This document shows, one piece after another, positions 17,461 through 61,146 of a stretch of 64,000 nt of DNA. Made by a program: the position numbers and the translations under genes. This stretch comes from Anaerolineae bacterium (GTDB taxonomy: Bacteria > Chloroflexota > Anaerolineae > 4572-78 > NAK82), in assembly GCA_034436775.1 (NCBI GenBank), contig DAOTVI010000067.1:9173-73172 (forward strand), in the 5' to 3' direction. Position 1 is the stretch's first letter. The number at the start of each line of letters is the position of its first letter. The notes beneath the pieces are model-generated. The model searched no databases, was not told the origin of the DNA, and worked only from the letters and a program-made list of their open reading frames with translations.

Positions 17461-18420
17461 CTAATCGGGGGTGATATGCGTGCCGGTCTCACCGTTCAGG
17501 GCACGTTCGATGTTCTCCGGGTTGGTGATAATGGCATACCGACCGCCTTGCTCCAGGTAGTTGATGATCGCCTCGATCTTAGGCGCCATGCTTCCCCTCT
17601 TGAAGTGGATTCCCTCGGCGAGATAGCGCTTTGCCTCGCTCAAGGTCATGTGATCCAGCCAGCGTTGGTTCGGTGTGCCGAAGTGAAGCGCCACCTTTTC
17701 CACGGCCGTGCTGATCAGCAACAAATCGGCGTTGAGAGATGCGGCGAGCAACCCAGAGGCATAGTCCTTGTCAATGACGGCAGCCACCCCTTTGAGGTGG
17801 CCCTTTTCATCGGCCACCACCGGGATGCCACCTCCCCCCACGGTGATCACCACGGCGCCGGCATCCAGCAGCAGCTGGACCACATCCAGCTCGACCACCC
17901 GCTGGGGCAAGGGAGAGGCGACCACACGGCGCCAGCCGCGGCCGGCATCTTCGATCACGTTCCAGCCGTCCTTCTCGCGTCGTTCCCGGGCCAACTCTTC
18001 GGTCATAAACGAGCCGATCGGCTTTGAAGGGTTCTGCCAAGCCGGGTCATTCGGGTCCACTTCCACCTGAGTCACCACCGTCACCACCGGCTTGGCGATG
18101 CGCATGTCCAGGAGGTGGTTGCGCAGGGTCTGTTGGAGCGCATATCCAATGGCGCCCTGCGTGTCGGCACCACACACATCCAGCGGGACTTCGTGCAATT
18201 CGTGGCGCGCCAGTTCGGAACGTCGCAGGATAAAACCTACCTGGGGGCCATTTCCGTGGGTGAGGGCAATTTCCCATCCCATCCGCACCATTTGGGCGAT
18301 GTGATAGGTGGTCTCGTTGGCGGCTGCATACTGGTCCTCCACGGTTTGGTGCGCCGAATCTTTGATGAGCGAATTGCCACCAATCGCCACCACCGCAACC
18401 TTGCGACCTGTACGCTTCAT
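17461..18420 (-). CDS. arcC: Carbamate kinase
   Basis: VVAIGGNSL N-terminus, GHGNGPQVG-type loop (THGNGPQVG) and GGGGIPV. Start moved to ATG 18420 (MKRTGRKV) behind AGGAGAG. Confidence 0.9.
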   Translation of the reverse strand: MKRTGRKVAVVAIGGNSLIKDSAHQTVEDQYAAANETTYHIAQMVRMGWEIALTHGNGPQVGFILRRSELARHELHEVPLDVCGADTQGAIGYALQQTLRNHLLDMRIAKPVVTVVTQVEVDPNDPAWQNPSKPIGSFMTEELARERREKDGWNVIEDAGRGWRRVVASPLPQRVVELDVVQLLLDAGAVVITVGGGGIPVVADEKGHLKGVAAVIDKDYASGLLAASLNADLLLISTAVEKVALHFGTPNQRWLDHMTLSEAKRYLAEGIHFKRGSMAPKIEAIINYLEQGGRYAIITNPENIERALNGETGTHITPD

Positions 18421-18432
18421 CTCTTTCTCTCC

Positions 18433-18481
18433 TGCACGCGATGCGCGTGCATCCGGGCGGCGCTTCCTACCGCCCGGATGC
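18433..18481 (-). other. Two overlapping strong hairpins in the carbamoyltransferase-carbamate kinase intercistronic gap
   Basis: GCATCCGGGCGG (18449-18460) / CCGCCCGGATGC (18470-18481) form a perfect 12-bp stem. TGCACGCG..CGCGTGCA (18433-18451) overlaps it and abuts the arcC RBS. No U-tract. Confidence 0.5.
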
Positions 18482-18507
18482 ACTTTGGCTACCCTCCTTC
18501 AGACGGG

Positions 18508-19545
18508 TCACAAATTGCCCATGGTCAGGGCCATCACCGCTTTTTGCACGTGCAAACGGTTCTCGGCCACTATATAAATCACCGAGTTAGGGCCGCTGGC
18601 GACTTCGTCGGTCACTTCATTGCCGCGATCGACCGGCATGGGATGGGTGAAGATAGCGTTGTCGGTGCGGGCCATCTTCGCGGCATCCAATGTCCAACCC
18701 TGATACGAGAGGGCCTTGGCGATCTCTTCCTGTTTCTTAAATTGGCCGTCCTGGTATGCGTGGGGGCTCATCCAGTTCCGCGCGTAGACGATATGCGCAC
18801 CGTCCATGCAGCGCACCGGATCGTTGGTGATCTCCAGCGAGGTGCCCCACGCTTGGCAGTTCTGCCTGGTCCATTCGATCACTTCAGGGTCGAGGTCATA
18901 GCCCTCGGGGCGCGCGATGGTGATATGCATCCCGAAGCGGCTGGCGATCAAGAGCGCTTCCTGGACGCTGCACCAGCTGCGTGCGAGAGCACCTTGTGCC
19001 CAGGTGAGCACGAACTTCTTGCCCTGCAGGCGGCTGTAGTCCGGCCGGCCCGGGCCGCCACCGAACCATTCGGCCCAACCCATCACATCCGCCAGGCCCT
19101 GGAAGGGGTGAAAGCGGTCGTCGGCCATGTTGACGACCGGCACATCCGCCCAATAGGCATACTCGCGCAGCAGCTCGGTGCCGGCACCGTAATAGGGGAC
19201 TTTGTCCTCCAAGATGCGGATGCCGATCCCACAGGCATAGCGTGACATCACCTTGGCCGCATCTTCGATCGTCTCCCCCGCCGTGGTGGCCGTCTTGAGG
19301 CGCATGCTTTCCGGCACCAAGAATTGCGCATGGCCACCCAGCTCGGTAGCCGCACACTCAAACGATTGCCGGGTGCGCACCGAAGGGTTGTAGAAGAACA
19401 TGAAGAACGTCTTGTGGGCCAGGATCTTGGTCCAGCGCTCGGAAAAGCGATCCCGTTTCATCCGCACGGCCAGATCCAGCACCGCGTCGAGCTCCGGTTT
19501 GCTCCACTCCTGGGTGGTGATCAGATCGCGCCCGTAAAGGTCCAT
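18508..19545 (-). CDS. Aspartate/ornithine carbamoyltransferase-superfamily enzyme, unassigned subfamily
   Basis: Carbamoyl-phosphate motif SVRTR and HPFQ are present. The third motif is THPMPVDR (ATCase-like HPxP) rather than HCLP. The start lies 2 nt after the upstream stop. Confidence 0.8.
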   Translation of the reverse strand: MDLYGRDLITTQEWSKPELDAVLDLAVRMKRDRFSERWTKILAHKTFFMFFYNPSVRTRQSFECAATELGGHAQFLVPESMRLKTATTAGETIEDAAKVMSRYACGIGIRILEDKVPYYGAGTELLREYAYWADVPVVNMADDRFHPFQGLADVMGWAEWFGGGPGRPDYSRLQGKKFVLTWAQGALARSWCSVQEALLIASRFGMHITIARPEGYDLDPEVIEWTRQNCQAWGTSLEITNDPVRCMDGAHIVYARNWMSPHAYQDGQFKKQEEIAKALSYQGWTLDAAKMARTDNAIFTHPMPVDRGNEVTDEVASGPNSVIYIVAENRLHVQKAVMALTMGNL

Positions 19546-19547
19546 GC

Positions 19548-20621
19548 TTAGAGTCGCCCTCCCATGGTCAAAGTCATCACCGCTTTCTGCACGTGCAAGC
19601 GATTTTCGGCCTGCTCATACACCGCAGAGCGCCATCCCCGTTGGACATCGGTGTGGTCAATCACGTCGTTGTCAACTTCCCAGCCGCGGTCGGCCGGCAG
19701 ACAATGGAGATAGATCGCCTCGTGATCGGCGGTTTCCATCAAACGACGGGTCATCTTCCAGTGCTTGTAGCTTTCGTTGATCGCTTTGGCCTTCTGTTCG
19801 TCTCCCTCACCCACCGGGGGTTTGAAGAAGCATTTTGGCGCCCATGCCTTGGGGTATACCACGTGGGCATCCTTAAAGGCGCTTTCGAAATCGTGGGTGA
19901 TGGTGAAAGAAGCGTTGTTCATCCGGGCGTTGGCCTGACATGCCGCGATCACTTCGGGATCGAGTTCGAACTCGGGCGGATGGCATAGCACGGTGTCACA
20001 ACCCATCATCGAAGCGGCGATGATGGCGCTTTGCGGCACGGCGCGCGGCTTATGAATGCTGGGCGAGTAAGCCCAGCTCATCACGAATTTGATGCCCTTG
20101 AAGGTGCCGAAACGCTCCCAGGTGGTCAGAATATCGGCCAGAGCCTGGAAGGGGTGGTACTTATCGTCCTCCATATTCAACACGGGGATGTCGGCCCAGC
20201 GAGCGAACTCGCGGATGAGCATATTCGCGGCGCCATACACCCAGTCCACCGGATCTCCATAACAGCGGATCGCGATGCCATCCCCCATACGACTCAGCAC
20301 GCGCGCAACGTCGGAGACGCGTTCAGTGGAGTAGGCTACCTCTTTGCCTTCCAGCGCCGGCGTGTAAATCTTCTCCGGGTCGAGATAGTGGGCGTGGCCA
20401 CCCAGCTGGGTCATGCCGGCCTCGAAGCTGTTGCGCGTCCGCAAGCTCTGATTGTAGAAGATCATAAACAGGGTCTTGGCACGCAGCAGGTGATCGTGCA
20501 ACTCCCCCATCGCATAGCGTCTCTTCAGATCGCGGGCGCAATCAAGGATGGTTTCGACTTCCTCTTTGCTCCATTCCAGCAGTGTGATGAAATCCTTGCC
20601 CTTGAAGCTATCGGTTCTCAT
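19548..20621 (-). CDS. YgeW-like (knotted) carbamoyltransferase
   Basis: SLRTR, HPFQ and HCLPADR motifs. Blocks MSWAYSPSIHKPRAVPQS and YPKAWAP match my recollection of E. coli YgeW (MTWAYSPSYGKPLSVPQ, YPKSWAP). Confidence 0.8.
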   Translation of the reverse strand: MRTDSFKGKDFITLLEWSKEEVETILDCARDLKRRYAMGELHDHLLRAKTLFMIFYNQSLRTRNSFEAGMTQLGGHAHYLDPEKIYTPALEGKEVAYSTERVSDVARVLSRMGDGIAIRCYGDPVDWVYGAANMLIREFARWADIPVLNMEDDKYHPFQALADILTTWERFGTFKGIKFVMSWAYSPSIHKPRAVPQSAIIAASMMGCDTVLCHPPEFELDPEVIAACQANARMNNASFTITHDFESAFKDAHVVYPKAWAPKCFFKPPVGEGDEQKAKAINESYKHWKMTRRLMETADHEAIYLHCLPADRGWEVDNDVIDHTDVQRGWRSAVYEQAENRLHVQKAVMTLTMGGRL

Positions 20622-21857: not shown

Positions 21858-22838
21858 TTAAAATCGCTTGATGATCGGGTCATACGTCGGCGCGTTATTG
21901 GGCCCGCCCACGCGACGCTGGCCGTGACTGGGGCCGCCGGACGCGCCGGACATATCCCGTACCGTCGTACCGCTCCCCTCGTCCAGGGGATACAGCCCTA
22001 CCGTGTTCCCGTCGGGTACGAAAGGTGTGCTGGGCGGCGTAAAGTCGCCCGTGTAGCGCACCACGTTGGAGATGCGCACCTCATCCACCCAGCCGCTGAA
22101 GGAGGGATAGGTGCTCGGGTCATAGTCGTGCTTCTCCGCGCCGATGACCAGGAACGGTTCGTTGACCCAGCCGCCAGTGATGGGGCGGCCGACGCGGTAG
22201 GAGATGTTGCCCGTTGGGCCGCTATGTTGGCGATCCAGCACACCGTTGACAAAAATGCACATCTCGCCGTTGGTGCGGCGGGTCACAGCGACGTGGTGCC
22301 AGGTATTGGCACTCAGCGTCGTGTTCCCGCAGATGGTGTAGCCGCTAGTGCCGTTGTGTGCGCCGAAGGCGATCCGTCCGCCGTAGAGGGAGAGGCCGTA
22401 GTCGCCGTAATCGGGCACACCGAAGATGTCGCGGTCAAAGATGATGTTGCCGTTGATCCAGGTGTCGTTGCCCTCGGTGCAGGGGCCGCTGGCATTTTGC
22501 CCCGGCGCAAAGCGCAGCCAGAACTCCAGGGTGAAGTCCGTCGCGCCGACGTTGACCGGCAGCGAAATGCCCAAGGTGTTGCTCATCGGGATTTTGACCC
22601 GGTCAATGTCGCCGCTGCCGGTGCCGTAGAAACGAAGGGAGTAGGTATTGGGAACGGGCGAGGTTGGCGTGGACGGTGCCCGCAACACCACCGGCAGGTA
22701 GGCGCGCGGAGTGAGCGATGGAGCAGTCTGCAGAACGTTCAAAGGGGACGAAGCCAGGGCAACCAGCGTCAATGCCGCGCCGGTCAAAACGGTCACCCAT
22801 CCGCGCATCACCGATGATGGAAATGGTGTTTGTTTCAT
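21858..22838 (-). CDS. Secreted LamG/concanavalin-A-like lectin domain protein
   Basis: Signal peptide ([18 protein letters not shown]). The LamG-type core includes [25 protein letters not shown] and [13 protein letters not shown] 22838 is preceded by AGGAG; the ORF-track start at 22955 overlaps the upstream gene. Confidence 0.8.
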
Positions 22839-22848
22839 TATGGATCTC

Positions 22849-25734
22849 CTATCGGTCCCCCCGCAGCACCAGCGGCAGCCAGAGGCGCGGGGTGATCCGT
22901 TCGTTGTCAAAGGCCTGGATGGTGGCCACGATCTTCTGGATGGAATACAGGTCACCCCGCCCCCAGGGGCGGTCCAGCCAGCGGCGCAACTGGCTGCGCC
23001 CCTCGCCCAGGATGTAGGCGTGGGCCATAAAGTGCGACCAGCCGGCGATCGGCGCCGTGTAAGCCGTCTCGCCCTCCTCGGCGTGGGCGCCGGCGCGCGT
23101 CAGATACCACCAGCGCAGGCCGTCGCCCGTCTCGCGCGAAAGCACGTGCGCGGCGGCCAGGCCGTCGGTCTGCTCGCGCAGGTACAGTCCGATCTCCGGC
23201 GTGATCCCGAAGAAGACCGGCAGGTACCAGCCCTCAAAGTTGCCCCACTCCGGCTGGTTGTCGCGCGGCGTCCAGTACTGGGTGATGGATTTGGCATAGG
23301 TGATGTAGGGCGTGATGACCCGCCCGGCGGTCAGCGCGCTCACGGCGGTGCTCACGGCCTGGGTGTAGGTGATCGAGGTCTGGCCGAAGAGTTGCCACGC
23401 CATGCGCGCGTAGCCGATCACACCGGCGATGTCGGCGTAGTAGGGCAGGTCGTTGGCCCGCGCGTTGTAGAGGGCAGTCAGGTCGGTCCAGTTGTTCTGT
23501 ACCAGCGCCCAGTCGCCGGTATTCTTCGCCCACAGCCAGACGGCGTACAGGGAGATGGGGCTGGCGGCCGGCGGCGGCCAGTTGTTCAGGTTCCGGCGGA
23601 TGTCGTCGGGCACGGGGTAGAGTTCGCGCGGCGCGCTGTTCTTCAGCCAGTCCCCGCCCCAGGGCATGCCCTGCCAGGGCGGATAGCGCGCGATCACGCC
23701 CGAGACGTACTGCCTCACGCTCACCTGCAGAGTCGGGTCCAGGTAGGGATAGGCCATTGCCAGCGTGAGCAGGAGTTCGCCGGAGTCGTGCCAGACGGCG
23801 TTGCCATGGCTGTCGTAGGTGACCGAGGGCGGTTCCGGCGGCTGCGTGGAATTGTGCGGCCACATGGCCGGGTTGCTGAAGCCGCGCTCAAAGTAGTAGG
23901 GCATCGGGTAGGGCGTCAGCGCGATCAGCGCGCGCACCTCGGCGTGCAGGCGCGCCACCAGGTCGGCCGGAGGGTTGGGCGCCGGGGTGGTCAGGTCCAG
24001 CGTCACGTAATCGGTGAGCGGGCGGGTGGTGGTCACGACGGGCGGCGTGGGCGGGGGCGGCGGGGGCAGGGTCCGGGTGTAGACCCGCGGCGCGGGGCAG
24101 GCGCTGCCAGGACGCGTAGCGATGCCGGCCAGCCCGCCCTCAATCACGCGCCAGTAGATCATGTTGTTCGCCACCACCGCACCGGCGCGCGAGTGGCCCT
24201 CGTTCACGCGCGGCGAGGGGAAGGGATAGGCCGGGTCGCGGGGATTGCCACTCAGGGGAAAGAAGGGGTTGGGACCATCTGGACCACAACCAGAACCGGG
24301 CCCGCCGCCGCACTCGGGCCAGATGTTGGAGACGTTGCCGATGTGCACCAGCGACCCGCTGATGGCGTTCGTCAGACTGATGCCGCCCAGGCGTTCCCAG
24401 TTATCCACCAGCAGGATGTTACCGCCCATTGTCAGCACCGCTGGCTCGTCGGAAGTCAGGCGAAATTCATAGTTGAAGTAGGAGCGCGGATAGTCGCGCG
24501 TGCGCAGGCCGATGATCTGAGTGAGCATTTGCGTGTTCAGCAGACCCAGCTCGGCATCATATTGCGAGGAAACGTGCACCGATGAGCCGGTAGTCTGAAT
24601 GCCCTGGCGGGCGCGGTACATCACGTAGGCCGTGTACGGCGCGCTCGCCCGCACCACCGGCATTGCGGGCACATCGCTGTTGCCGAAGGTGTAGAGCACC
24701 GGCGCCACTCCGCGCGTGATGCCGGTGGTCGCGTCCAGCACAAAGAGCGTCTGCTTGTGCGGGTTAGAGGCCAGGTAGTTCTGGATATGCGGCCGGATGG
24801 CGTTCCAGTCGGCGTCCCAGTCAGAGTTAACGGCGCCGGCCCGGTTCATCACCTCGTCGCCTTCGTGCAAAAGTTGCCAGAGGGCGTAGAGCGGCTGCGA
24901 GCGATAGATCACCGTGTCGCTGAGCACCACCGGGTAGCGATCGGTCAGGCTCTGGCCGTAGAGTTGCGTCTGCCAGACCCACGCGCCGGTCTCGGCGTTC
25001 ACGGCGAAGGCGCGGATGGCCTCGTCCCCGGCAAAGATCAGCCGTCCATCGCGGCTGAGAGCCGGCGTGGTGAGGATGGGGGCGTCGGACTGGTATTGCC
25101 AGATCACCGCGCCGTCGCGCAGGTTCAGCGCGGTCAACCGGCCATCGGTGGCCGCGACGACGACGTGGCCGCGCGCCGCGTCCATCAGCGGGGCAGTGGC
25201 GCTGCGGCCGGTGAAGCGCTGCCAGCGCAGCGCGCCGGTGGCGGCGTCCAGGGCGAAGGTGTTGCCCCCGTGTGTGCTGAAGACCACCGTGCCGCTCATC
25301 ACGCCCGGGGAATGGCGGATCGGGCTGCCGTCGCCGGCAAAGGTCCACAGCGAGGCGCCGGTGCTGGCGTCCCGCGCGTAGAGCACGCCGTCCAGCCCGC
25401 CGATGAAGAGCCGGCCGGCGGCCACCACCGGCTGGGCGCGTGAGGCGAAGGGCACCTCGTACCATTTCCAGATGTAGCAGTACGGTGGATTGACCTGAAG
25501 GGGCGAGTAGTTGCTGCGCTGTGCGTCGCGGCCCAGTTGCGGCCAGTCCCGGTCAGGGATCGTCTCCTGCCCGGCGATGCCGGGCGTAGAGAGCAGGCCG
25601 GCAGAGGGGGCAGCGGAGAGCGTTTGGGGGGAGTCGCCGTCAGAGGACAGGGCGAGGGCCCACGCACCCAGTCCGCTGACGAGCGCCATTAGGATGCGTG
25701 CGAGAGTTGACCGGTAAAAGTTGCCGGATACCAT
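22849..25734 (-). CDS. Secreted 961-aa protein: N-terminal PQQ-like beta-propeller plus a large C-terminal, probably all-alpha, domain
   Basis: N-terminal signal anchor. Repeated propeller blades ([41 protein letters not shown], ...). The C-terminal half is rich in W/Y helix-repeat-like blocks. It ends ...[12 protein letters not shown]. Confidence 0.8.
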
Positions 25735-25820
25735 GTTGATTTCTCTCCAGACGACGTAGCATAGGATTCATCCGGTGCTACAGAACTTCTATCCAAGAGT
25801 ACCCCATCACCTTGCTCTTT

Positions 25821-26057
25821 TCAATGGGAATCTTCTCCTACGGCCATTCCGCCGCCAGCCAGCCGTTGGGCGGCAGAACGGAAGTACAACGCCATAGAGG
25901 TGACGGCCGGCGGATATGCGCGCACCCCCGGGGGCGGGTAGGCGCGCGGGGCGGGCGTAACCTGCTGGACGTTGAGATAAGGGGAATGAATTGCAGATAC
26001 ATCGATCAATCCGAGCAGGACGAAGATGGGCAGGAGCGCAAAGTTTTGGGGTTTCAT
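25821..26057 (-). CDS. Small secreted protein (78 aa), paralogous to the N-terminal leader of the LamG protein
   Basis: AGGAGA RBS and signal peptide MKPQNFALLPIFVLLGLIDVSA. SPYLNVQQVTPAPRAYPPPGVRAYP aligns with Lam[26 protein letters not shown]. Confidence 0.45.
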   Translation of the reverse strand: MKPQNFALLPIFVLLGLIDVSAIHSPYLNVQQVTPAPRAYPPPGVRAYPPAVTSMALYFRSAAQRLAGGGMAVGEDSH

Positions 26058-26082
26058 CGTTTCATCTCCTGCCTGAAGTTCT

Positions 26083-29000
26083 CTATTGGTTCCGGAGAAT
26101 CAACGGTAAAAATATCGGGTAAATCCACTCCCACTGGAGCGCGACGTCTGTGGCCAGCGGCGTCGGGAGGGATATCGTCAGCGTGCTGCCGGTCGTGGTG
26201 ACCAGCTGGCGGGTGGTCGGCGCGCCGGCCCAGGTGTCCCACCAGGTGACCCGATACGTGCCCGTCACCAGATCGGGAACGGTGATCTGGCCGGAGACGG
26301 GTGGAATCGTCACCCCTTCCACCACGTTGCGCCAAGTGTATCGCCGATGGCGAATCCAGAGATGGCCGCGCCCGGCCAGGCGATCGGCCTGGCCCAGCAC
26401 GATCAGGTCGGGATGGGAGGCCGTCGCCCGCGCGTCCTGGTAGCGCCCGTTGTTGAGCGGGATGCCCTCCATAAAGTTGCGGAAGGCGCGGAAGTGGAAG
26501 TACAGATTGTCGCGGCGGATATTGGTCTGGTCCCAATAGAGTTCGTACAGGCCACCGGGGTTGACCTGCGCCCAGAGGAAGTTGTGCAGCCAGACGCCCC
26601 GGGTGTCTTGGTTCTGGGCATGCTTGCTGTCGCCGCGGTACTCCGCGTCGTCGCCGATGGCGACTTCGCCGCGGGTGACCGGCTTGCGCGGTCCGGTGAG
26701 GGCGCGTCCCCCAATTTGCAGACTCAGCGATGCGTGCAGATGCGCCGAGTCCGAGATGACCGAAGTGAGGTCAAATTCGCCGTTCAGGTAGGCCCGCTGT
26801 CCGTCCGGTGCAATCAGTTCCACGTTGTCTATCCACGCATATCCCCCCGTGCCAAAGCCGTTCTGGAAGGCGATGTACAGCGTGTGTACGGCGTCATCGT
26901 TCAGGATGAGCCGCTCACTGGCTGGCGCCGGTTGTCCAGCGTGGGTATAGCGACTGTCAAAGGTGCGCCAGTCGTAGGTGCCAGCCGGCGCGGTGCAGAG
27001 CCAGCCCTTGCCCTCTTCGGATGGCGGCGGCACGACGCTGCCGCGCGAGTCGCTCTCCCCGTGATCCAGTATCCACATCAGGCGCGGGCCGGCCAGTGTA
27101 TGGGGGATGTCGAACTCGCACCTGCCGGTGAAATTCTCGGCTTTCATCCTGTAGCGGATCACCCATTCGCCCCGCCCACGGATGATGAGGTGGCGCGGGG
27201 TACTGCCGGCGTTGTTGAACTGCGTCGCGCCGGGGATGCGCACCGAATGGCCCTGGCCGCCCACGACATAGGCCGGGCGATTCTCAAAGGCCAGCGGTCT
27301 AGCGATGTTCTGCGCCCAGCCGGCGTAGCGGTTGCCGCAGCAGGCGTATTCGTGAACGTCGGCATAGTCCACGCCGCTGTACTGCGGGTTGGCCCAGAAC
27401 TCGGCCTGGGGGAAACTGTGCCAGTGGGAGGTGGTAACCAGATGGCGATGGGGGTCGTTCTCGCGCATAAAGCGGCCAAAGGCGTCGGCCATGGCGTAGT
27501 GATTGCCGTTGTAGGGGTCACCCTCGTTCATCAGTTCCCAAGAATGGACGGCGCGCGAATAGCCCCAGCGTGCGATCAGGTAGCGCCAAAAGTACTCGTG
27601 CAGGCGGCGCACCGCCGTGTTCGGCGCCGCGTAGAAGCGGTTGTTGTCCAGATCGTAGTAACCGCCCACCGGGTTGCCGTTCGCATCCAGATGGTTGGCG
27701 ATCCAGTCGTTTTTCTCCAGCACAACGGGACGGATGGTCACTTCGCCCTGTTCGGCCCGCTGGAAAAGATAATCCCACTGCCAGGAGGGTTGCTGGTCAA
27801 AATAGAGGTGGTAGGCGAAGCGGTTCTTGCGCAGGATTTCCGGGCCGGTCGGCGCGCCGTTGCGCAGTTCGCGCAGCGAGACTTCGTCCACGTAGGCATC
27901 TCCGCCGGTGGTGTTCTCCAGGATCAGGTAAAAGTTATCCAGGAAGTACTGGTTCAGGCCGGTGGTGAAGGTACCGGTGACCGTCACCCAGCCGGGCGTG
28001 GTGTCGCTGACGTGGTTCAGCAAGCGGCGGCTGGCGTTGTAGGTAGCGGCGGGGTTGGCGCAATCCTCGCCCAGCCAGCCGCCGGTGCGGACGGTGAAGC
28101 CGTAGGGATAGCGGCCATCGCGCGGTCCGGTCACGCTGACGGTCTTCAGGCGCACGCTCAGGTGATAGGTCGTGTTGGGCTTGACGGCGACGTTGTTGCT
28201 GAAGCCCTGGAACATGCACGGGTTGCGCCGCCTTTCCATAGACGGGTCGGCATAGTCCCACAGGCGCAGGGAGACCAGGTGGCCGGTGTAGGCGTGGGTG
28301 TAGGTCAGGCTGGTCGGGTTAAAGTAGCCGCCCTCGCCGGGCAGATGGTGGGAGTGCCAGGGGTTCCACGGCGCCATAAAGATGCTGCTGCCGATCATCC
28401 ACATCCGCACAAAGTTCACGCGGCCGGCCTTCAGCCGCGCCAGCGTGTCGTCGGCATCGTAGGTAAAGCGCCAGCCGGAGAATCCCTCGCCGTGCCCGAC
28501 GCCGATGAAGGGCGTGCCATCGGAATATTCAAAGTAGCCGGGATCGGTCGGGCTGATGCGGATAAAGCCGTGGTTGTGCGGCAGGGTGGACGGCACGACG
28601 GTGAATCTTCCCTCGGCGGTCTGGACCGTGCCGGAGGCATCGGTGGCGCGCACGCGATACTTCCAGTCGCCCAGTTGTTGGGGTGCAAAGCGCACCTTCC
28701 AGACCGGGTCGCCCGTCGGATAAAGCCACTCCTCACCGTCAGCTGGACAGTCAGTCACAATCGCGTTGTTGACGATGCACCGGCGCTCGTAGGGCTGGTA
28801 GAGGAAGGCCGGCTGGGTGATGACGCTGGTCCAGTTGTCGGGGCTGAACAGCGCGTCCACGGTGATGCCCACGCTGGCGGGGACGCCGGGCGGCGGCGCG
28901 GGGTCGTAGGGAAAGTAGGGGTTGGTCGCCCCGCTGCCGGTAATGGTGAAGGTCAATTCAAATTTTTCGTACAGGCCGACGGTGGCGGCACTGGCCCGCA

Positions 29001-29124
29001 GGTTCTCGATCTGCAACGCGGTGGGCGCTGCGTCGGCGCAGGGCACGACGCGGCCGATGCCGATTCCCAGGGTCAACAGCCCCAGGAGCGCGATCCAGAA
29101 AACGGGACGGGAAAGAGCAATCAT
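26083..29124 (-). CDS. Secreted about 1010-aa glycoside hydrolase-like protein (DUF5060-like N-domain plus GH5/cellulase-like TIM barrel plus C-terminal beta domains)
   Basis: Signal peptide MIALSRPVFWIALLGLLTLGIG. N-domain YEKFELTFTITG...VDALFSPDNW. GH5-like NE motif in HSWELMNEGDPY. ATG 29124 is preceded by AGGAGG. It ends ...IYPIFLPLILRNQ. Confidence 0.7.
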   Translation of the reverse strand: MIALSRPVFWIALLGLLTLGIGIGRVVPCADAAPTALQIENLRASAATVGLYEKFELTFTITGSGATNPYFPYDPAPPPGVPASVGITVDALFSPDNWTSVITQPAFLYQPYERRCIVNNAIVTDCPADGEEWLYPTGDPVWKVRFAPQQLGDWKYRVRATDASGTVQTAEGRFTVVPSTLPHNHGFIRISPTDPGYFEYSDGTPFIGVGHGEGFSGWRFTYDADDTLARLKAGRVNFVRMWMIGSSIFMAPWNPWHSHHLPGEGGYFNPTSLTYTHAYTGHLVSLRLWDYADPSMERRRNPCMFQGFSNNVAVKPNTTYHLSVRLKTVSVTGPRDGRYPYGFTVRTGGWLGEDCANPAATYNASRRLLNHVSDTTPGWVTVTGTFTTGLNQYFLDNFYLILENTTGGDAYVDEVSLRELRNGAPTGPEILRKNRFAYHLYFDQQPSWQWDYLFQRAEQGEVTIRPVVLEKNDWIANHLDANGNPVGGYYDLDNNRFYAAPNTAVRRLHEYFWRYLIARWGYSRAVHSWELMNEGDPYNGNHYAMADAFGRFMRENDPHRHLVTTSHWHSFPQAEFWANPQYSGVDYADVHEYACCGNRYAGWAQNIARPLAFENRPAYVVGGQGHSVRIPGATQFNNAGSTPRHLIIRGRGEWVIRYRMKAENFTGRCEFDIPHTLAGPRLMWILDHGESDSRGSVVPPPSEEGKGWLCTAPAGTYDWRTFDSRYTHAGQPAPASERLILNDDAVHTLYIAFQNGFGTGGYAWIDNVELIAPDGQRAYLNGEFDLTSVISDSAHLHASLSLQIGGRALTGPRKPVTRGEVAIGDDAEYRGDSKHAQNQDTRGVWLHNFLWAQVNPGGLYELYWDQTNIRRDNLYFHFRAFRNFMEGIPLNNGRYQDARATASHPDLIVLGQADRLAGRGHLWIRHRRYTWRNVVEGVTIPPVSGQITVPDLVTGTYRVTWWDTWAGAPTTRQLVTTTGSTLTISLPTPLATDVALQWEWIYPIFLPLILRNQ

Positions 29125-29461: not shown

Positions 29462-30238
29462 TCAGGCGGTGACGAGGAACATCGCGCCCAGCAGTACCAG
29501 TGCCGCCAGTGCCAACCCATGCACCATGCGCGTCATGGACATGCCGGTCATCATCTGCCACAACGATGCCGCCATGATAAACGCCCAGGCGATGAACAAC
29601 GTGACGACATCCGCCCGCGCCACCTCACCCCACACCAACCAGGCACGCCCCGCCGCAGCGGCCAACGCCAGCAGCGTGCCCCAGAGAGCGATGCGTAGCG
29701 TCCCATCGCCCAGCTGTTCCGCCCGAGAAGCTGCAAGCGCCGGGGTCGGACGCAGCCGGATGAGCAGTCCGGCGCCATATGTCAGGAGTGTCCCGGCAGC
29801 GACCACTGCGGCGAGCTCGCGGATCGCGATCAGAGGCCATGCCCGTGGGTTGCCGGTCAGCGCCTCGCCGTTCCCTGCCCCCCAGGATGCCAGGGCAACC
29901 CCATAGGCGACCACCGCGCAACCGTACAGGCAGGGACTTACGGGGGATTTGGACACGCGTCGCGCCAAGAGGGTGTAGATCGCCAGTGCAGCCAGCGCCA
30001 GCGGGGGCAACCACGCCGCGCGCCACGGGAGTGGCGGCCACGTCAATGCCACATAGCCCGCCCATCCCGCCGTGCCGATCAACAGCCCCAGACGCGTGAG
30101 CAGCCTGGCCATCTGGAGGTGCCCGGCGGTCTCCTCCACCCGGAGCGCGTCCGCTACGTACAGGCCGAAGGCCACCAGCCACATCAGCACCGTGGCCGTC
30201 CCACAGGCCTGAAGCATCAGAGGCGCTTGCGCGGTCAT
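29462..30238 (-). CDS. Polytopic membrane protein, cytochrome c assembly CcsA/HemX (YpjD)-like
   Basis: 258 aa with about 8 TM helices. The C-terminal region WLVWGEVARAD sits where CcsA has WGxxWxWD, and the Trp residues are not conserved. It lies directly downstream of a ResB-like gene. Confidence 0.45.
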   Translation of the reverse strand: MTAQAPLMLQACGTATVLMWLVAFGLYVADALRVEETAGHLQMARLLTRLGLLIGTAGWAGYVALTWPPLPWRAAWLPPLALAALAIYTLLARRVSKSPVSPCLYGCAVVAYGVALASWGAGNGEALTGNPRAWPLIAIRELAAVVAAGTLLTYGAGLLIRLRPTPALAASRAEQLGDGTLRIALWGTLLALAAAAGRAWLVWGEVARADVVTLFIAWAFIMAASLWQMMTGMSMTRMVHGLALAALVLLGAMFLVTA

Positions 30239-30264
30239 CTGTCCCGACCCTCCTCACCGACGGA

Positions 30265-31779
30265 TCAACCGCCCAGGGTGCGCAATCGCTCGAGCGGAGG
30301 CGAATGGGGGGCCAGGGTGTCCACCCAGATGGTCATGCGACAGCCACCTGCCGCGTCCTCCGTCCGCACGACCAACCATATCGGGCGGCACCACGTCAGC
30401 GACCCACCGCCGAGGGCGACGCCCAGCCATCCCAATGCTGCCATGATCCACCACGCGCCTTGCTGGACGCGCAGCTGGACATCGTGGCTCAGAGAAGCCT
30501 GATACCGTACCCCGTCAAAGAGGACTTCATCCCCATCGCTGAGGGTGGCGGTCCCCATGGGGGCTGTCTCGACCCCGCGGAAGAAACTCAGCGTCAACTG
30601 GCCCGGCGATGCATGGGGCTCCGAAGCACGTCCGAAGCGCAAGGTGACATTTCGGGCAGGAAGGCTGACAAAACTGGCATCCTCCTCGTCCGCAAGGGAC
30701 AGGCGTGCGCGCGGCCGGGCATGCGCACGAGGCACAAAGGACCACAGCTCCAACGTCTCGCCGTCCTGGGCATCCTGGGCGGTCACTTCCACCATCGGGG
30801 TGATGTCCACCACCGTCCACCACATCCCGCCGATCATCCTTCCGGCGTGCAGCGGCAGGGTGATCGGCGCACCGCCGGATTCCGCCTCGCCATGGCGCAC
30901 CTGCACCACGCCCTCCGACGGAGCGAGCGGGTCGCCGACGATCCGGGTGTCCTCCAGCCAAAGGACCAGCTCTGGAAGGCCCGGCACCGTAGTTGCTTGA
31001 CCGGGTTGTAGTCTCAGGACATAGGCCCGGCCCAGCCAGCTGTGCAACAATAACCCCATAGCCAGCAGGGCCAGGCCGACGTAAAGGCTGCACAGTGCCC
31101 ACCAGCCCAGGTGTCGGCGCCACGCCAATCCCACCTGCGCGCGCGGATCGCCGCGCACCGTGTATCCATCCTGTGCCAGCTGTTGCATCGTGTGCGCAAA
31201 CACGTGTTCGGCCGCTGCAGCGCGCCACACAGCCAGTCCCAACGGACGACCGAGTGCCGGGGGTGTCTCATCCGGGCTTCTCGCGAGCAATCTGGCCGGC
31301 TCCGAACGCGCCCTGGTGCGCTGCCACGCCACCGGCAATGCCGAAGTGCACACAGCCAATGCGTGGAGGAGCAGCACCGCCAACGGCAGCCGTAACCATG
31401 CCGAAGTGCGCAGCTGGAAAAAACCCAGTGCCCGCAGATCGTCCACCAACGGCCACAGAAACGGGGGCATCTTTGCGAACCACTGGCTATACACCAACGG
31501 TTCGTCCAGAGAATAGGGGGATTGTGGGATGATTTGGCTGAGGCCAATGAGGCCACTCAGCCAGAGCAAAGCCACCATAGTCACATGTGGGCTGGTCCAC
31601 ACGCGCCATACCAGGGCAGGCCAGTCGGTCGCCCGGGTGGGGCGTGCGGATCTTCCCTCTTCGATGGACACTTCGCTGGACACGTCCGTACGCCTTTCTG
31701 TCGCGGAGAGCAGGGCAAGAGGACGGTTCGAAGAAGGGATGGTTTCCTTCACGAGATCCCGCAGGCCGGGCGCCGGCAT
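30265..31779 (-). CDS. ResB/Ccs1-like cytochrome c biogenesis membrane protein
   Basis: N-terminal TM ending ...GLIGLSQIIPQ and a second TM (LGFFQLRTSAWLRLPLAVLLLHALAVC) match the ResB pattern. It also has a large extracytoplasmic domain and a C-terminal TM. The exact start is uncertain. Confidence 0.6.
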   Translation of the reverse strand: MPAPGLRDLVKETIPSSNRPLALLSATERRTDVSSEVSIEEGRSARPTRATDWPALVWRVWTSPHVTMVALLWLSGLIGLSQIIPQSPYSLDEPLVYSQWFAKMPPFLWPLVDDLRALGFFQLRTSAWLRLPLAVLLLHALAVCTSALPVAWQRTRARSEPARLLARSPDETPPALGRPLGLAVWRAAAAEHVFAHTMQQLAQDGYTVRGDPRAQVGLAWRRHLGWWALCSLYVGLALLAMGLLLHSWLGRAYVLRLQPGQATTVPGLPELVLWLEDTRIVGDPLAPSEGVVQVRHGEAESGGAPITLPLHAGRMIGGMWWTVVDITPMVEVTAQDAQDGETLELWSFVPRAHARPRARLSLADEEDASFVSLPARNVTLRFGRASEPHASPGQLTLSFFRGVETAPMGTATLSDGDEVLFDGVRYQASLSHDVQLRVQQGAWWIMAALGWLGVALGGGSLTWCRPIWLVVRTEDAAGGCRMTIWVDTLAPHSPPLERLRTLGG

Positions 31780-57642: not shown

Positions 57643-59364
57643 TCAGTCAAGCCGTACCCGATCAAGCGGTTCATCGGGAAGCGGGACGCCATACAGGATG
57701 CGCGCCTGGTCAACGGTCAGGAAACCGTTGCGCACGTCCGCATAAACGCTGGCCGGATCCCGTTGTCGCGGATCGCCGTAACCGCCCCCGATGCCGGTCA
57801 CCAGGCGCACGATGTCACCGCGTTTCAGGGGATAGCGCGCCAGCTTGCCCTTCCACAGCACAGGCTCCGACGCACCTGCAGGGATGACCGCCACACCGTT
57901 GGGCGACCCCGGATGCCCTCCCATTGCGCCCCACGGGACGTACTTGTGCCGGCCAAAGGTGGTGGTGAGCTGGGCGGCAGCGCACAGGATCTGGTAGTCG
58001 CGGATCAGCCCAAATCCGCCGCGATACCGACCGGCACCGGCCGGCTGCACATTGAATGTGAACTGCTTCACCAGCAGGGGATAACGGGCCTCACACACTT
58101 CCACCGGCATAATGTACGTCTCGCCATCGCCGACGACCACCAAGCCGCTCTCGCCGTCCTTGGTTGCCCCGGCGCCCCAGCCACCCGCCTGCGGCTCCAC
58201 CAGGATGAAATACCCGCCATCCTCGTCGCGGCCACTGATCACCGTGCCACAGACGCTCAAAGAATGGCCTGCGGTCAGGCGGTCTGGCAAGACCGGAAAG
58301 AGCGCACGCCATAGCAGATCCACGGCATAGGCGCCGGTCTCCCAGTACGTTGAGACCGGCGCGGGGCGCTGCGCGGTGAAGACGGTGCCCTCCGGACAGA
58401 TCACCTGTATCGGGCGAAACCACCCTTCGTTGACAGCAGCTTGCGGGTCGGTGATGGCCTTGAATATTGTCCGGCACGCGGAGTGCAGGCGGGTGCGGGT
58501 GCAATTGATCGGCCCGGGCACCTGCGGCGCCGAACCGGTGAAATCGGCGATGAAAGCGCGGTCGGTGATGGTCACGCGCGCGCAGACGTATACCGGCTCA
58601 TCGGACAGCCCATCGTCGTCCATCCAATCCTCGGCGAAAAACGTTCCCTTGGGCAGCTGCATCAGAGCCTGGCGTGCCAGCCGCTCGCCGTGATCGAGGA
58701 TGGCCTGCATACTCCGGCACACTGTCTCCACGCCATAACGTTGGCAAATCTCCACAACACGGCGCTCGGCGCACCTCAGGGAGGCGATGCCGGCGTAGAG
58801 GTCACCCAGGGTGCGTTCCGGGGTGCGTACATTCGCCGCAATCAGCTCGATCAGCCCTTGCTCAGCCCTGCCGTTGCGGTAGATATGGATGGCGGGGAAC
58901 TGCAGTCCCTCCTGGAAGATCTCCCGGCTGTCGGTGGTCCAGCTGCCGGCGGCCATGCCCCCCACTTCGGTCCAGTGCGCCTTGTTGACCCCAAAAGCGA
59001 CCAGCCGGTCGTGGCAGAAAATCGGTGCGATCAACGCCACGTCGGAAAGGTGGTTTCCGCCACCTTGGTAGGGATCGTTGGTGATGAAGATGTCGCCGGG
59101 CTGGATCAAATGGGGAGGGAATTTTTGAAGGATGGCCTTCACCGCGAAGGACAGGGTGCCCAAGAAGCCGGGCACACCGTTCGCCTGTGCGATCAAGTCG
59201 CCCTTGCTGTCCGTGATGGCACAGGCATAATCCAATACTTCATAGATGATAGGACTTTGGCTGCTCCGTCCGAGCACGACAAAGCTTTCCTCCGCGGCGG
59301 CAATCAGCTGCTCGCGGACGATCTCCACGGTGAAAGGGTCGAGATGGGGTTCCGGCATGTTCAT
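57643..59364 (-). CDS. hyuB: Hydantoinase B/oxoprolinase family protein, paralogue 3 of 3
   Basis: DPFTVEI..., SPIIYEVLDYACAITD, ITNDPYQGGGNHLSDV and NKAHWTEVGG blocks. ATGA overlap with the upstream paralogue. Confidence 0.9.
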   Translation of the reverse strand: MNMPEPHLDPFTVEIVREQLIAAAEESFVVLGRSSQSPIIYEVLDYACAITDSKGDLIAQANGVPGFLGTLSFAVKAILQKFPPHLIQPGDIFITNDPYQGGGNHLSDVALIAPIFCHDRLVAFGVNKAHWTEVGGMAAGSWTTDSREIFQEGLQFPAIHIYRNGRAEQGLIELIAANVRTPERTLGDLYAGIASLRCAERRVVEICQRYGVETVCRSMQAILDHGERLARQALMQLPKGTFFAEDWMDDDGLSDEPVYVCARVTITDRAFIADFTGSAPQVPGPINCTRTRLHSACRTIFKAITDPQAAVNEGWFRPIQVICPEGTVFTAQRPAPVSTYWETGAYAVDLLWRALFPVLPDRLTAGHSLSVCGTVISGRDEDGGYFILVEPQAGGWGAGATKDGESGLVVVGDGETYIMPVEVCEARYPLLVKQFTFNVQPAGAGRYRGGFGLIRDYQILCAAAQLTTTFGRHKYVPWGAMGGHPGSPNGVAVIPAGASEPVLWKGKLARYPLKRGDIVRLVTGIGGGYGDPRQRDPASVYADVRNGFLTVDQARILYGVPLPDEPLDRVRLD

Positions 59365-61121
59365 CGCCCCACGAGTTTGCCCTTTCTGCGCGCCGCGCGC
59401 AAGGCAGCGGTAGCGGCCACGTCCACCCCCTGGCCATCTGGGCCAAACACGACGCCGAACAAGCGGGTGGCCTCCTCAGGTTCGAAGAAGCCGTTGCGCA
59501 CATCCTCCCACACGCGCCGGACCTCGCGCGCCAGGGGATCTCCGTATCCGCCTCCCACGCCGGTGATCAGACGCACCCGGTCATTGCGCTGCAATCGGTA
59601 ACGCGCCAGCTTGCCGGCCCGGATTGTCGGCTGTTCGGCACTTCCGCCGTGTGGGTAGACTTCAATGGCGTTGGGCGAGCCGTCTGCACCGCCGGCATAT
59701 CCCCACGGAGGGAAACGATGTCGGCCGAACGTCGCAGTGAGCTCGGCCTGGGCACACAGGATGCGATACTCGCGCACCAGGCCAAAGCCACCCCGGAAGC
59801 ACCCCGCGCCGGCCGGGACTGTGTTCAAGCGATACTGCTCTACCAACAGCGGATAGCGCTGTTCACACACCTCAACCGGCATCACATAGGTCTCGCCGTC
59901 GCCGGCCACCACCAGTCCCGACTCGCCGTCGCGATCGTGGGTCGCCCCCCATCCCCCGGCCTGGGGCTCGACCAGCACAAACGGGCCGCGTTCTTCGTCC
60001 ACCCCGCTCAGGATGGTGCCGCAAACGCTCAAGGAGTGCCCCACCGGCAGGCGGTCACGCGCCACCGGATAGAGGGCGCGCCAGATCAGCTCGCTGGCAT
60101 AGGCGCCGGTTTCCCAGTATACGGAAACCGGCGCCGGACGCTGAGCAGTAAAGATCGTACCATCGGGACAGACGACCCGCAAGGGATCAAACAGCCCCTC
60201 GTTGTTCGGTTCGTGGGGGGCGACAATCGCCTTGAAGATCTCACGACATGAGACTTCCAGTCCCACGCGGGTGGTGTTGATCGGACCGAGCGTCTGAGGT
60301 GGCACGCCGGTGAAGTCGGCGGTGAACCCCTCCTCGCCGACGGAGACATGCACCCGCACATGCAAGGGCTGTTGACCGATGCCATCGTCGTCAATCCAGT
60401 CCTCGGCACTGTAGTGACCATAGGGTATCTGCCGCAAGGCGGCCCAGGCCACCGCGCGACCGTGCTCTAAGATACTCTGCATGGTGTGATGCACGGCCTC
60501 GCGGCCATATTTGTGGCATAGCTCCAGGACGCCCGCCTCGCCGGCCCGCAGCGAAGCCACGCCCGCATAGATATCTCCCAAGGTCATCTCCGGGAGGCGC
60601 ACGTTCGCCGCGATGAGGTCAAGCAGCGCCGCATCGGGCCGACCACGGTGGTAGAGGCGCAGTCCGGGCAGCTGCAGACCCTCTTGAAAGATCTCAGTGG
60701 AGTCGACAGTCCAGCTGCCCGCTGCCATGCCTCCCATCTCCGTCCAGTGCGCTTTGTTGGCTGCGAACGCGACCAACCGTCCTTCGTAAAAGATCGGAGC
60801 GATCAGCGTCACGTCCGAAAGATGGGTGCCACCGCCCTCGTAGGGATCATTGGTGACAAAGATATCCCCCGGTGCGATCTGCTCCGGACCGAACTTGCGC
60901 AGGATCGCGCGCACCCCGAAACCAAGACACCCGATGAAACCTGGGATGCCCTCCGCCTCGGCCACTAAACTGCCGTCCGGTGCGGTCAAGCCACAGGCGC
61001 AGTCGAGCACCTCGTAAATGATGGGGCTCTGGCTGGTGCGCTTCAACGTGAGGAACATCGCCTCCGCTGAAGCCCGCAGCGCCTCGGCGATGACCTCAGT
61101 GGTGAACGGATCGGCTCGCAT
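59361..61121 (-). CDS. hyuB: Hydantoinase B/oxoprolinase family protein, paralogue 2 of 3
   Basis: Same conserved blocks (VTNDPYEGGGTHLSDV, NKAHWTEMGG). Roughly 55-60% identical to its neighbours by eye. Confidence 0.9.
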   Translation of the reverse strand: MRADPFTTEVIAEALRASAEAMFLTLKRTSQSPIIYEVLDCACGLTAPDGSLVAEAEGIPGFIGCLGFGVRAILRKFGPEQIAPGDIFVTNDPYEGGGTHLSDVTLIAPIFYEGRLVAFAANKAHWTEMGGMAAGSWTVDSTEIFQEGLQLPGLRLYHRGRPDAALLDLIAANVRLPEMTLGDIYAGVASLRAGEAGVLELCHKYGREAVHHTMQSILEHGRAVAWAALRQIPYGHYSAEDWIDDDGIGQQPLHVRVHVSVGEEGFTADFTGVPPQTLGPINTTRVGLEVSCREIFKAIVAPHEPNNEGLFDPLRVVCPDGTIFTAQRPAPVSVYWETGAYASELIWRALYPVARDRLPVGHSLSVCGTILSGVDEERGPFVLVEPQAGGWGATHDRDGESGLVVAGDGETYVMPVEVCEQRYPLLVEQYRLNTVPAGAGCFRGGFGLVREYRILCAQAELTATFGRHRFPPWGYAGGADGSPNAIEVYPHGGSAEQPTIRAGKLARYRLQRNDRVRLITGVGGGYGDPLAREVRRVWEDVRNGFFEPEEATRLFGVVFGPDGQGVDVAATAALRAARRKGKLVGR

Positions 61122-61146
61122 GAAAGTCAGGATACGAGGGTGAAGG

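Follow-up and report, generated by a model that had tools for sequence, protein, structure and literature searches.

The YLP-box, a short terminal peptide on unrelated exported proteins of an Anaerolineae operon, and its possible role as an envelope tag in Chloroflexota

The 64-kb stretch of an Anaerolineae bacterium genome analyzed here (the window, by which we mean the whole of that DNA) contains a minus-strand operon of secreted proteins that share a short hydrophobic peptide, the YLP-box, at a terminus or just after the signal peptide. The open reading frames (ORFs) of the window were examined with Pfam, NCBIfam, AlphaFold2 (AF2; monomers only) and Foldseek. The operon consists of four tightly spaced ORFs, and their coordinates agree with those of the initial annotation of the sequence; the intergenic gaps are, in order, 25, 86 and 10 bp. 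The four ORFs are as follows.

26083-29124, minus strand: the GH5-like (glycoside hydrolase family 5) secreted giant, 1013 aa; signal peptide, DUF5060, GH5-type barrel with inserted beta-sandwich domains, C-terminal YLP-box tail
25821-26057, minus strand: a 78-aa ORF, the 5' remnant of a PQQ2-type gene, with ribosome-binding site, signal peptide and leader
22849-25734, minus strand: the PQQ/BamB-like propeller giant, 961 aa; large C-terminal domain of no recognized family, YLP-box at the C-terminus
21858-22838, minus strand: the LamG (concanavalin-like) secreted protein, 326 aa; signal peptide, about 18 aa, YLP-box, short Pro/Thr linker, jelly-roll

The three domain calls made initially were borne out by Pfam, by matches in the PDB and by AF2 with Foldseek. 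Pfam recognized DUF5060 in the GH giant, PQQ_2 in the PQQ giant and Laminin_G_3 in the LamG protein, and nothing in the 78-aa ORF. The AF2 model of the GH giant, built with 50 homologs in the alignment, has a predicted local distance difference test (pLDDT) score of 88 and a predicted TM-score of 0.87, and its best Foldseek match is ManDH5, the DUF5060-GH5 beta-mannanase of Dictyoglomus (E-value = 6e-31, target TM-score 0.81). Because this model and the PDB matches at the sequence level (9gmj/9gpc) both point to ManDH5, the label 'GH5-like' is justified. The propeller of the PQQ giant lies at about residues 90-260 (Pfam PQQ_2 and PDB propeller matches). All three box-carrying proteins have signal-peptide-like N-termini, judged here and below by a hydrophobicity heuristic and inspection. 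The nearest relatives of the window are Thermoflexus and hot-spring metagenome-assembled genomes (MAGs) of Thermoflexales and Anaerolineae, and the genes for GH giant, PQQ giant and LamG protein are clustered again in MAGs of these two groups (L012, L024 and L081), often along with a second PQQ protein and a CBM96-like protein.

A scan of all six frames with the strict pattern LP[LIV][LIV][LM][RK] gave exactly three matches in the 64 kb, all of them inside the operon, and the motif sequences were found as first described. Together with the decayed copy in the 78-aa ORF they are listed here.

26092-26112, minus strand: FLPLILR of the GH giant, followed by NQ and the stop, two residues before the stop
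22861-22881, minus strand: WLPLVLR of the PQQ giant, followed by GDR and the stop, three residues before the stop
22680-22700, minus strand: YLPVVLR of the LamG protein, N-proximal (residues 47-53), after the signal peptide
25920-25940, minus strand: YPPPGVR of the 78-aa remnant, a decayed box for which the ortholog has YLPLVMR

The GH giant ends in ...WIYPIFLPLILRNQ (also given as ...IYPIFLPLILRNQ) directly before its stop codon, and the degenerate segment of the 78-aa ORF reads ...APRAYPPPGVRAYP... Two solute-binding proteins encoded in the window have no YLP-box, and the box is therefore not a feature of every exported protein.

Codons for L, P, V and R abound in genomes of high GC content, and hydrophobic strings of a few residues are frequent, so the recurrence might simply reflect composition or a DNA-level repeat, with no function of the peptide. 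The composition of the window, however, predicts 0.22 matches to the strict pattern, or 0.013 if a preceding aromatic residue is included, against the three observed, and none of 300 residue shuffles reached three matches to the aromatic-including pattern. The codons of the three copies differ synonymously (TTA CCG TTG ATT CTC CGG, CTG CCG CTG GTG CTG CGG and CTG CCG GTG GTG TTG CGG). Conservation is therefore at the level of the peptide, and a DNA-level repeat or recombination site was ruled out on the same grounds.

The initial annotation had proposed that enrichment at the termini of proteins be checked, and two samples show it. The first comprised 80 GTDB loci around LamG homologs (L001-L080; about 0.8 Mb from Chloroflexota and about 0.42 Mb from other phyla), whose ORFs of at least 100 aa were searched with the pattern [FYW][LI]P[LIVM][LIVM][LIVMA] and with the same pattern reversed, which has an identical composition. 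The Chloroflexota loci contained 49 matches against 7 for the reversed pattern; 14 against 0 lay within 6 residues of the stop, and 22 against 2 lay 30-150 residues past the upstream stop. With a 5-mer core, 28 C-terminal matches against 1 were counted in these loci. In the other phyla there were 4 matches against 5 reversed. The two genuine matches from other phyla sit on L040, a contig assigned to 'Ignavibacteria'. It runs colinear to an Anaerolineaceae contig, with 80-90% nucleotide identity, and was probably mis-binned.

The second sample consisted of DNA encoding YLPLVLR in public metagenomes, with random positions in the same contigs as the control. Forty-seven of the 123 sites, which are distributed over 120 contigs, lie within 8 residues of a stop (38%, compared with 3.1% of random positions), that is, terminal placement is 12-fold over random. 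About nine more sites look like true internal or N-proximal boxes, and C-terminal placement thus dominates for the canonical YLPLVLR. The explanation by composition or by DNA repeats therefore has virtually no chance of being right: the reversed pattern is 7-fold rarer and never terminal, the codons vary, placement is strongly biased to the end, and the peptide is conserved among homologs down to 39% identity.

The proteins that carry the box are diverse and comprise unrelated enzymes, lectin-like domains and adhesin-like repeats. The 47 C-terminal carriers from the metagenomes match 70 Pfam families, including PKD, beta-helix, S8, C25, C11, Sortilin/BNR, NHL, LVIVD and FG-GAP, and the carriers in the related loci include proteins with DUF11/SdrD-B repeats, Golvesin_C with PA14, CBM96, propellers, cadherin-like Ig domains, subtilase S8, M23 with LamG, PPC and papain C1. 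Every complete C-terminal carrier in the related loci has a signal-peptide-like N-terminus, and the four carriers that have none are cut at the 5' end by the end of the contig. By these comparisons, the YLP-box is a lineage-typical short linear tag on Sec-exported, apparently non-lipoprotein surface proteins and exoproteins of Chloroflexota. In the Candidatus Roseilinea giants with DUF11/SdrD-B repeats (L004:16-3174 and L005:4117-9453), two tandem boxes stand at the end (...AFIPIAMRPPELTPRVYLPVVLRPMQ before the stop).

Within individual families, the box persists in several positions. A total of 951 homologs of the LamG protein were found. In 25 LamG homologs, L48 and P49 are the sole invariant residues of a leader in which both the signal peptide and the linker vary, and the local consensus is [YWF]LP[LIV][IV][LMV][RKNQS], followed by a Pro/Thr-rich linker. 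Some homologs are devoid of both the N-proximal box and the linker, and in others the box stands at the very C-terminus (LPLILR at position 306 of 311, and ...KIYLPLVRR as the last residues in Bellilinea). In the LamG ORFs of L037, L041 and L052, a Pro/Thr linker and a conserved Cys pair precede a C-terminal box (...PCQGICIYLPLVRR, ...CAPDCRFLFLPLVRR and ...CVPHCRHLFLPLVRR, each before the stop), which suggests a small disulfide loop directly before the box in this subgroup. Among the homologs of the GH giant that extend down to the identity given above, 66 of 120 have the strict core within 10 residues of the C-terminus and many more show near-variants of it; typical tails are ...QVYLPLILKGW and ...YLPIVLRGE at the stop, and homologs without a box terminate directly after the last domain.

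Orthologs of the PQQ giant, 75% identical, are present in L007, L012, L015, L017, L018 and L024. The stand-alone ones terminate in ...VVYLPIVLRSPIR and ...LPRLWLPLILRTRQ. The PQQ giant and the LamG protein form a single ORF in several MAGs of Anaerolineae and Caldilinea, with the box and a Pro/Thr linker between the two parts (...TPRVWLPMVLRGSGASSPTPTPT...); in the window, L012 and L024 the two genes are separate, and each has a box of its own. These arrangements are a natural fusion/fission series. The joined ORFs are as follows.

L007:6821-10780, PQQ giant-LamG fusion
L015:7046-10795, PQQ giant-LamG fusion
L017:6968-10795, PQQ giant-LamG fusion
L018:1894-5673, PQQ giant-LamG fusion
P0013 and P0014, PQQ giant-LamG fusions

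Across all carriers, the consensus of the YLP-box is [LVAI]-[YFW]-L-P-[LIV]-[VI]-[LVM]-[RK], often with T-P-R just before it. Comparison of the peptides and their genes shows it to be a genuine tag under purifying selection on otherwise unrelated Sec-exported proteins.

The interdomain boxes of such fusions (PQQ giant-LamG, the C1 peptidase in L042, and L096/L157) could be taken as maturation sites, at which a short N-terminal leader is removed or a polyprotein is cut, with no role in localization; proteins that end exactly in R would then resemble products cut after that residue. However, most multidomain carriers have a single, terminal box, and about 80% of the credible canonical boxes in the metagenome scan lie at the extreme C-terminus, where cutting achieves nothing. 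A cut past the N-proximal box would leave a long, purposeless Pro/Thr stalk as the new N-terminus, and the last position of the box is not strictly basic, since N, Q, S and G also occur there. We consider cleavage during maturation very unlikely.

The initial annotation stated that the motif matches no named signal, which is out of date, as two NCBIfam models describe exactly this box. A scan of the 47 metagenome carriers returned NF050076.1 ('sort_motif_YLP'; 11 positions, cut-off 15 bits) and NF053834.1 ('ultrashort_CTERM'; 10 positions, cut-off 10 bits), both named 'YLP-box putative sorting motif-containing protein' and both spanning three to four residues plus YLPLVLR. It should be added that the filters of HMMER discard weak short matches such as box peptides. 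The scores obtained with single peptides are listed here.

GH-giant tail of the window (24-aa peptide): NF050076, 12.6 bits, below the cut-off; NF053834, 12.0 bits, above the cut-off
Tail of P0121, an 86% ortholog of the GH giant: NF050076, 16.1 bits; NF053834, 12.7 bits; both passed
Tails of the GH-giant homologs P0169, P0200, P0163 and P0161: NF050076, below the cut-off; NF053834, 12.6-14.1 bits
PQQ-giant tail of the window (W variant): no reported match to NF050076 or NF053834
LamG leader of the window: no reported match to NF050076 or NF053834
Internal box of L096: NF050076, 18.3 bits; NF053834, 13.3 bits
N-proximal box of L150: NF050076, 15.9 bits; NF053834, 15.8 bits
Fusion junction of L007: NF050076, 13.6 bits; NF053834, no reported match

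The cut-off of NF053834 is thus reached by one of the three window copies, that of the GH giant, and the cut-off of NF050076 by none of the three. Because the tail in the window scores below 15 bits and that of P0121 above, the link of the window to NF050076 comes via orthologs. The scores of L096 and L150 show that the same box is recognized outside C-termini. A literature search found neither a paper on the YLP-box motif nor a mechanism for it. In short, the window copies are new, somewhat divergent members of the catalogued YLP-box, and the basic discovery had already been made by the curators of the database.

The 78-aa ORF had been described as a fourth product with a degenerate motif. 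The placement of that motif is correct. By tblastn, no homolog of this ORF was found in the 80 related loci, and it is missing between the two giants in L024. In L081, where the GH giant is 86% identical to that of the window, the next gene encodes a PQQ-type protein starting MKSKVLIILLILVLLGLIGISTVHPPHLNAQQTTPTPQAYLPLVMRAYPPSVASQEW..., and the 78-aa ORF aligns with the leader of this protein (L081:13199-15247), in protein and in DNA, from the ribosome-binding site to about codon 57, past which the similarity vanishes. Because the alignment to the leader stops there, the 78-aa ORF is read as the 5' stump of a lost gene: it is, by this alignment, a decayed remnant of a PQQ2-type gene and not a fourth tagged product. 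The possibility of a small tagged protein was rejected on the basis of the same match, and that of a lost leader of the PQQ giant was rejected as well, since in relatives the PQQ giants possess a signal anchor themselves and lack an N-proximal box. The remnant reads AYPPPGVR where the ortholog has AYLPLVMR, and five of the 15 nt for LPLVM are changed, so that, by this relic, the box decays fast after gene breakage. The window operon is rearranged relative to both L081 and L024.

In the AF2 model of the LamG protein, residues 33-65, which include the box, have a pLDDT of about 30, and the box is not docked on its own domain. In the GH giant, the last confident strand comprises residues 993-1000, and residues 1005-1013 (pLDDT below 50) form a free tail. 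The low pLDDT in both models ruled out the box as an edge strand of its own domain. The N-proximal box lies about 8-12 residues past a PhixA↓Q signal-peptidase site and the C-terminal box 0-6 residues from the end; usually the box forms the tip of a flexible stalk that is often rich in Pro/Thr, and such linkers are found behind N-proximal boxes and in front of some C-terminal ones. The residues past the box contain nothing like a membrane segment.

Orthologs from elsewhere have known anchors in the slot of the box. The LamG orthologs of two Saprospiraceae (L066 and L070) have the Por_Secre_tail of the type IX secretion system (T9SS) there, with scores of 35.7 and 41.5 bits (cut-off 23); the LamG orthologs of L054 and L063 have Dockerin_1, those of L044 and L076 have a C-terminal transmembrane anchor, and the GH-giant homolog P0144 has three SLH repeats instead of the box. 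Since this slot is filled elsewhere by a T9SS C-terminal domain (CTD), dockerin, transmembrane anchor or SLH, a role in localization is indicated, and the YLP-box is probably an address or anchor for the cell surface. The reading of the motif as a sorting or anchoring tag given in the initial annotation thus fits the comparative evidence, and what falls away is the fourth member, along with the lack of a named signal.

An address of this kind might be read by a dedicated protease or transpeptidase, by analogy with LPXTG/sortase or PEP-CTERM/exosortase, which would release the protein or attach it covalently. The box begins with LP as LPXTG does and stands on surface proteins behind Pro/Thr-rich stalks, its conserved basic residue (R/K) is followed by a small residue (G, S, A or N) in a possible P1-P1' site, and NCBIfam itself speaks of a putative sorting motif and of 'ultrashort_CTERM'. 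Against this, the box is followed by 0-6 residues, often by none, with no transmembrane segment or basic tail to hold the substrate at the membrane, and at N-proximal or interdomain boxes the acyl-enzyme chemistry would release the cargo rather than attach it. The annotated parts of the window contain no gene for a sortase, exosortase, rhombosortase or CPBP protein. As the initial annotation had noted, no sortase-like or exosortase-like gene was found among the annotated ORFs of the window (where annotation is partial), and none stands beside the carriers in the roughly 0.8 Mb of loci. The account by a sorting enzyme is therefore unlikely in our judgment. One lead in its favor comes from P0213, a 2.9-kb ENA contig on which the gene call puts a CPBP/CAAX-type intramembrane protease directly upstream of an ortholog of the GH giant: the protease part (PF02517, with EExxxR, FxxxH and HxxxN) is fused by the call to the signal peptide of that ortholog. 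Since tblastn found no homolog of it in the window or in L001-L080, it is kept as a lead only.

In L042 (L042:932-16682) and in L040, at least five YLP-box genes, which encode a subtilase S8, a LamG protein, an M23 protein with LamG, a PPC-domain protein and a papain C1 with an internal box, surround the gene for a 668-aa multi-pass membrane protein without a Pfam match (L042:10569-12575). This clustering, together with the position of the box in the segment that emerges from the translocon first or last and beside Pro/Thr-rich linkers, which are typical targets of O-glycosylation, would fit a transient docking site that serves a foldase, a chaperone or a linker glycosyltransferase during or after Sec export and is no address label. 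However, many carriers, including the GH giant and DUF11-type tails, have no Pro/Thr linker near the box, the 668-aa protein was not found near other carriers, and the equivalence with T9SS CTD, SLH, dockerin and transmembrane anchors points to localization instead. A purely transient role seems highly improbable.

We tentatively favor, as quite possible, a YLP-box that is a retained, orientation-independent and non-covalent tag that would tether proteins to the envelope through a common acceptor. According to this model, the box would stay on the mature protein and serve as a docking peptide which, in either orientation, holds the protein on the multilayered envelope of Chloroflexota without a covalent bond; binding to the acceptor could plausibly occur by insertion or augmentation of a beta-strand, as in donor-strand systems. 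The outcome for the window operon would be that a GH5-like hydrolase, a propeller protein and a LamG lectin-like protein are kept together at the cell surface. Extra envelope layers, both inner and outer, whose composition is unknown, have been described in Caldilineae (PMC13319060), and such layers would be a plausible destination of the tagged proteins. The tether is preferred to cleavage or transpeptidation because the box works in either orientation and between domains, because large multidomain carriers have a single terminal box and not one at every domain boundary, because both products of gene fission (PQQ giant and LamG protein) keep a box, and because tandem boxes occur and many proteins end exactly at R/K, with nothing to cleave.

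A candidate for the acceptor is offered by a family of tiny exported YLP-box proteins, which accounts for seven of the 47 metagenome carriers and has 2729 database matches, the named ones from Anaerolineae and Thermoflexales. Its architecture is a signal peptide, QSGGGYDLSWSTIDGGGYTWSEGGGYSLGGTVGQPDAGVLSGGGYTLAGGFWGGAAARYGV and a terminal YLPLVLRN[YF], and 117 of 120 members end in that box. The mature proteins have about 70 residues and three GGGY-type repeats and end in ...GGFWGGAAARYGVYLPLVLRN[YF]. In versions with tandem domains there is only one box, which closes the protein, and the GGGY module is also found N-terminally in larger proteins (L085 and L134). Members of the family are listed here.

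L197:3603-4073, minus strand, small YLP-box protein
L152:1420-1770, minus strand, small YLP-box protein
L154:429-719, minus strand, small YLP-box protein
L123:3917-4510, minus strand, small YLP-box protein
L137, L139 and L163, small YLP-box proteins
P0241-P0360, small YLP-box proteins

PamT, the truncated Ig-like donor-strand acceptor of the Pam pili of the candidate phyla radiation (CPR) (bioRxiv 10.64898/2026.03.03.709456), is matched by the small protein at 26.8 bits, far below the threshold (cut-off 240). By analogy, this suggests that the box may be a donor strand and that the small proteins may build a fiber or layer that receives the tagged enzymes; the candidate acceptor would then be a fiber or layer of these roughly 70-residue 'GGGY...GGFWGG' proteins joined by donor-strand exchange. 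The more specific proposal, that the YLP-box is an orientation-independent docking strand and not a sortase-type signal, by which dozens of unrelated exoenzymes and adhesins plug non-covalently into a common acceptor in the outer layers of the Chloroflexota envelope, is doubtful at present.

Proteins of 600-780 aa encoded beside the small YLP-box gene have a different conserved tail, ...GT[VI][IL]GKALEGL.E.TGVI..LVML[RH] at the stop.

L123:4710-6497, minus strand, protein with the alternative tail
L163:153-2480, plus strand, protein with the alternative tail
L134:11642-13717, minus strand, protein with the alternative tail

A tail similar to the GTxxGKALEGL type is found at the C-terminus of the LamG ortholog of L038 (a Fraserbacteria MAG), and the GT[VI][IL]GKALEGL tail may be another terminal module.

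Several points weigh against the tether. The PQQ-giant tail and the LamG leader give no reportable NCBIfam score, and their membership is assigned by positional orthology. The NCBI label 'ultrashort_CTERM' points to a C-terminal sorting signal, and this may imply enzymatic processing. Six hydrophobic residues appear too few to anchor a protein by themselves, which implies a common acceptor; however, all-against-all clustering of the 602 ORFs from the roughly 0.8 Mb of Chloroflexota loci revealed no conserved neighbor besides cargo genes, and no acceptor was found near the carriers. The idea of strand insertion, finally, draws on analogy and on the far-sub-threshold similarity to PamT. By the same clustering, and given that the annotated neighbors in the window are metabolic or unassigned, a dedicated enzyme or receptor encoded next to the carriers was rejected.

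The annotated neighbors of the operon include carbamoyltransferases, an amino-acid kinase, enzymes dependent on pyridoxal phosphate (PLP), hydantoinase B and solute-binding proteins, together with a tRNA synthetase, a histidine kinase and a MerR regulator. Three consecutive paralogs of hydantoinase B/oxoprolinase (573, 586 and 584 aa) occupy 57643-62901 (minus strand), and two adjacent carbamoyltransferase paralogs at 17461-20621 (minus strand) stand beside an amino-acid (carbamate-type) kinase and PLP-dependent enzymes. These genes suggest a catabolic region for nitrogen heterocycles or ureides, unrelated to the YLP-box. Upstream of the operon, at 29462-31779 (minus strand), are two membrane proteins of 258 and 504 aa with no Pfam match at E-values up to 1e-4, which resemble, by eye only, CcsA/ResB-type proteins of cytochrome c biogenesis.

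Hot springs, sediments and wastewater harbor Chloroflexota in abundance. Much of the non-lipoprotein exoproteome of this phylum appears to bear the YLP-box, and the partner of the box, once known, would explain how hydrolases and adhesins are displayed at the surface and would allow better prediction of localization for thousands of metagenomic proteins. The envelopes of the phylum are unusual and multilayered, and their composition is unknown (PMC13319060). A display tag of very small size (7-8 residues) could be derived from the box, and the docking strand, if true, would be a new principle of protein sorting and surface display for a major phylum.

Known systems resemble the YLP-box in part. 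LPXTG, the sortase signal, is likewise short, contains LP and is carried by secreted surface proteins, in many cases after a Pro/Thr-rich stalk that spans the wall; however, the YLP-box, [FYW]LP[LIV][VI][LVM][RK] with 0-6 residues after it, has no T-G, hydrophobic membrane segment or basic tail and is not confined to the C-terminus, and no sortase was seen in the annotated ORFs of the window or in the loci. PEP-CTERM/exosortase, PGF-CTERM/archaeosortase, GlyGly-CTERM/rhombosortase and MYXO-CTERM are, like the box, lineage-specific tags by which many unrelated exported proteins are related to one system. Such signals are tripartite and depend on a motif together with a transmembrane helix and a cluster of basic residues, whereas the YLP-box is followed by 0-6 residues and is also N-proximal; no NCBIfam model of the exosortase, archaeosortase or rhombosortase type matched the four window proteins at E-values up to 1, and no transmembrane segment lies past the box.

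T9SS CTD, dockerin and SLH fasten exoproteins to the cell surface and stand, in LamG and GH-giant orthologs, at the terminus where others have the box. Each is a folded module of 55-100 residues whose partner is known (PorU/V, cohesin and a pyruvylated wall polymer, respectively), whereas the YLP-box has 7-8 residues and is predicted to be disordered; the window proteins do not match Por_Secre_tail (TIGR04183/PF18962), a beta-sandwich of about 70-100 aa. The lipoprotein export signal (LES) of Bacteroidota is a short motif just past the signal-peptide cleavage site that decides surface exposure. The LES is acidic, occurs only at the N-terminus and is linked to a lipidated cysteine; the YLP-box, by contrast, combines hydrophobic and basic residues, lacks cysteine and stands mostly at the C-terminus.

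Donor-strand peptides (the N-terminal extension of chaperone-usher systems, the C-terminal strand of type V pili, TasA and the CPR Pam pili) are likewise short, hydrophobic, strand-like terminal peptides of Sec-exported proteins, N- or C-terminal depending on the system, and no outer-membrane machine is involved in monoderm-like cells (Pam pili; bioRxiv 10.64898/2026.03.03.709456). The YLP-box differs in that its carriers are enzymes and adhesin-like proteins and not only fiber subunits, in that no strand-lacking acceptor fold has been identified, and in the proline at position 3, which is unusual for a donor strand. The closest counterpart is the YLP-box of NF050076 and NF053834, with the same peptide on signal-peptide proteins of Chloroflexota-type contigs. 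The window copies differ from it by F or W in place of Y and by I/V variants, and boxes also occur after the signal peptide and between domains. What is added to the catalogue name is this N-proximal and interdomain use, the equivalence of the slot with four types of anchor, and the relic box of the 78-aa ORF.

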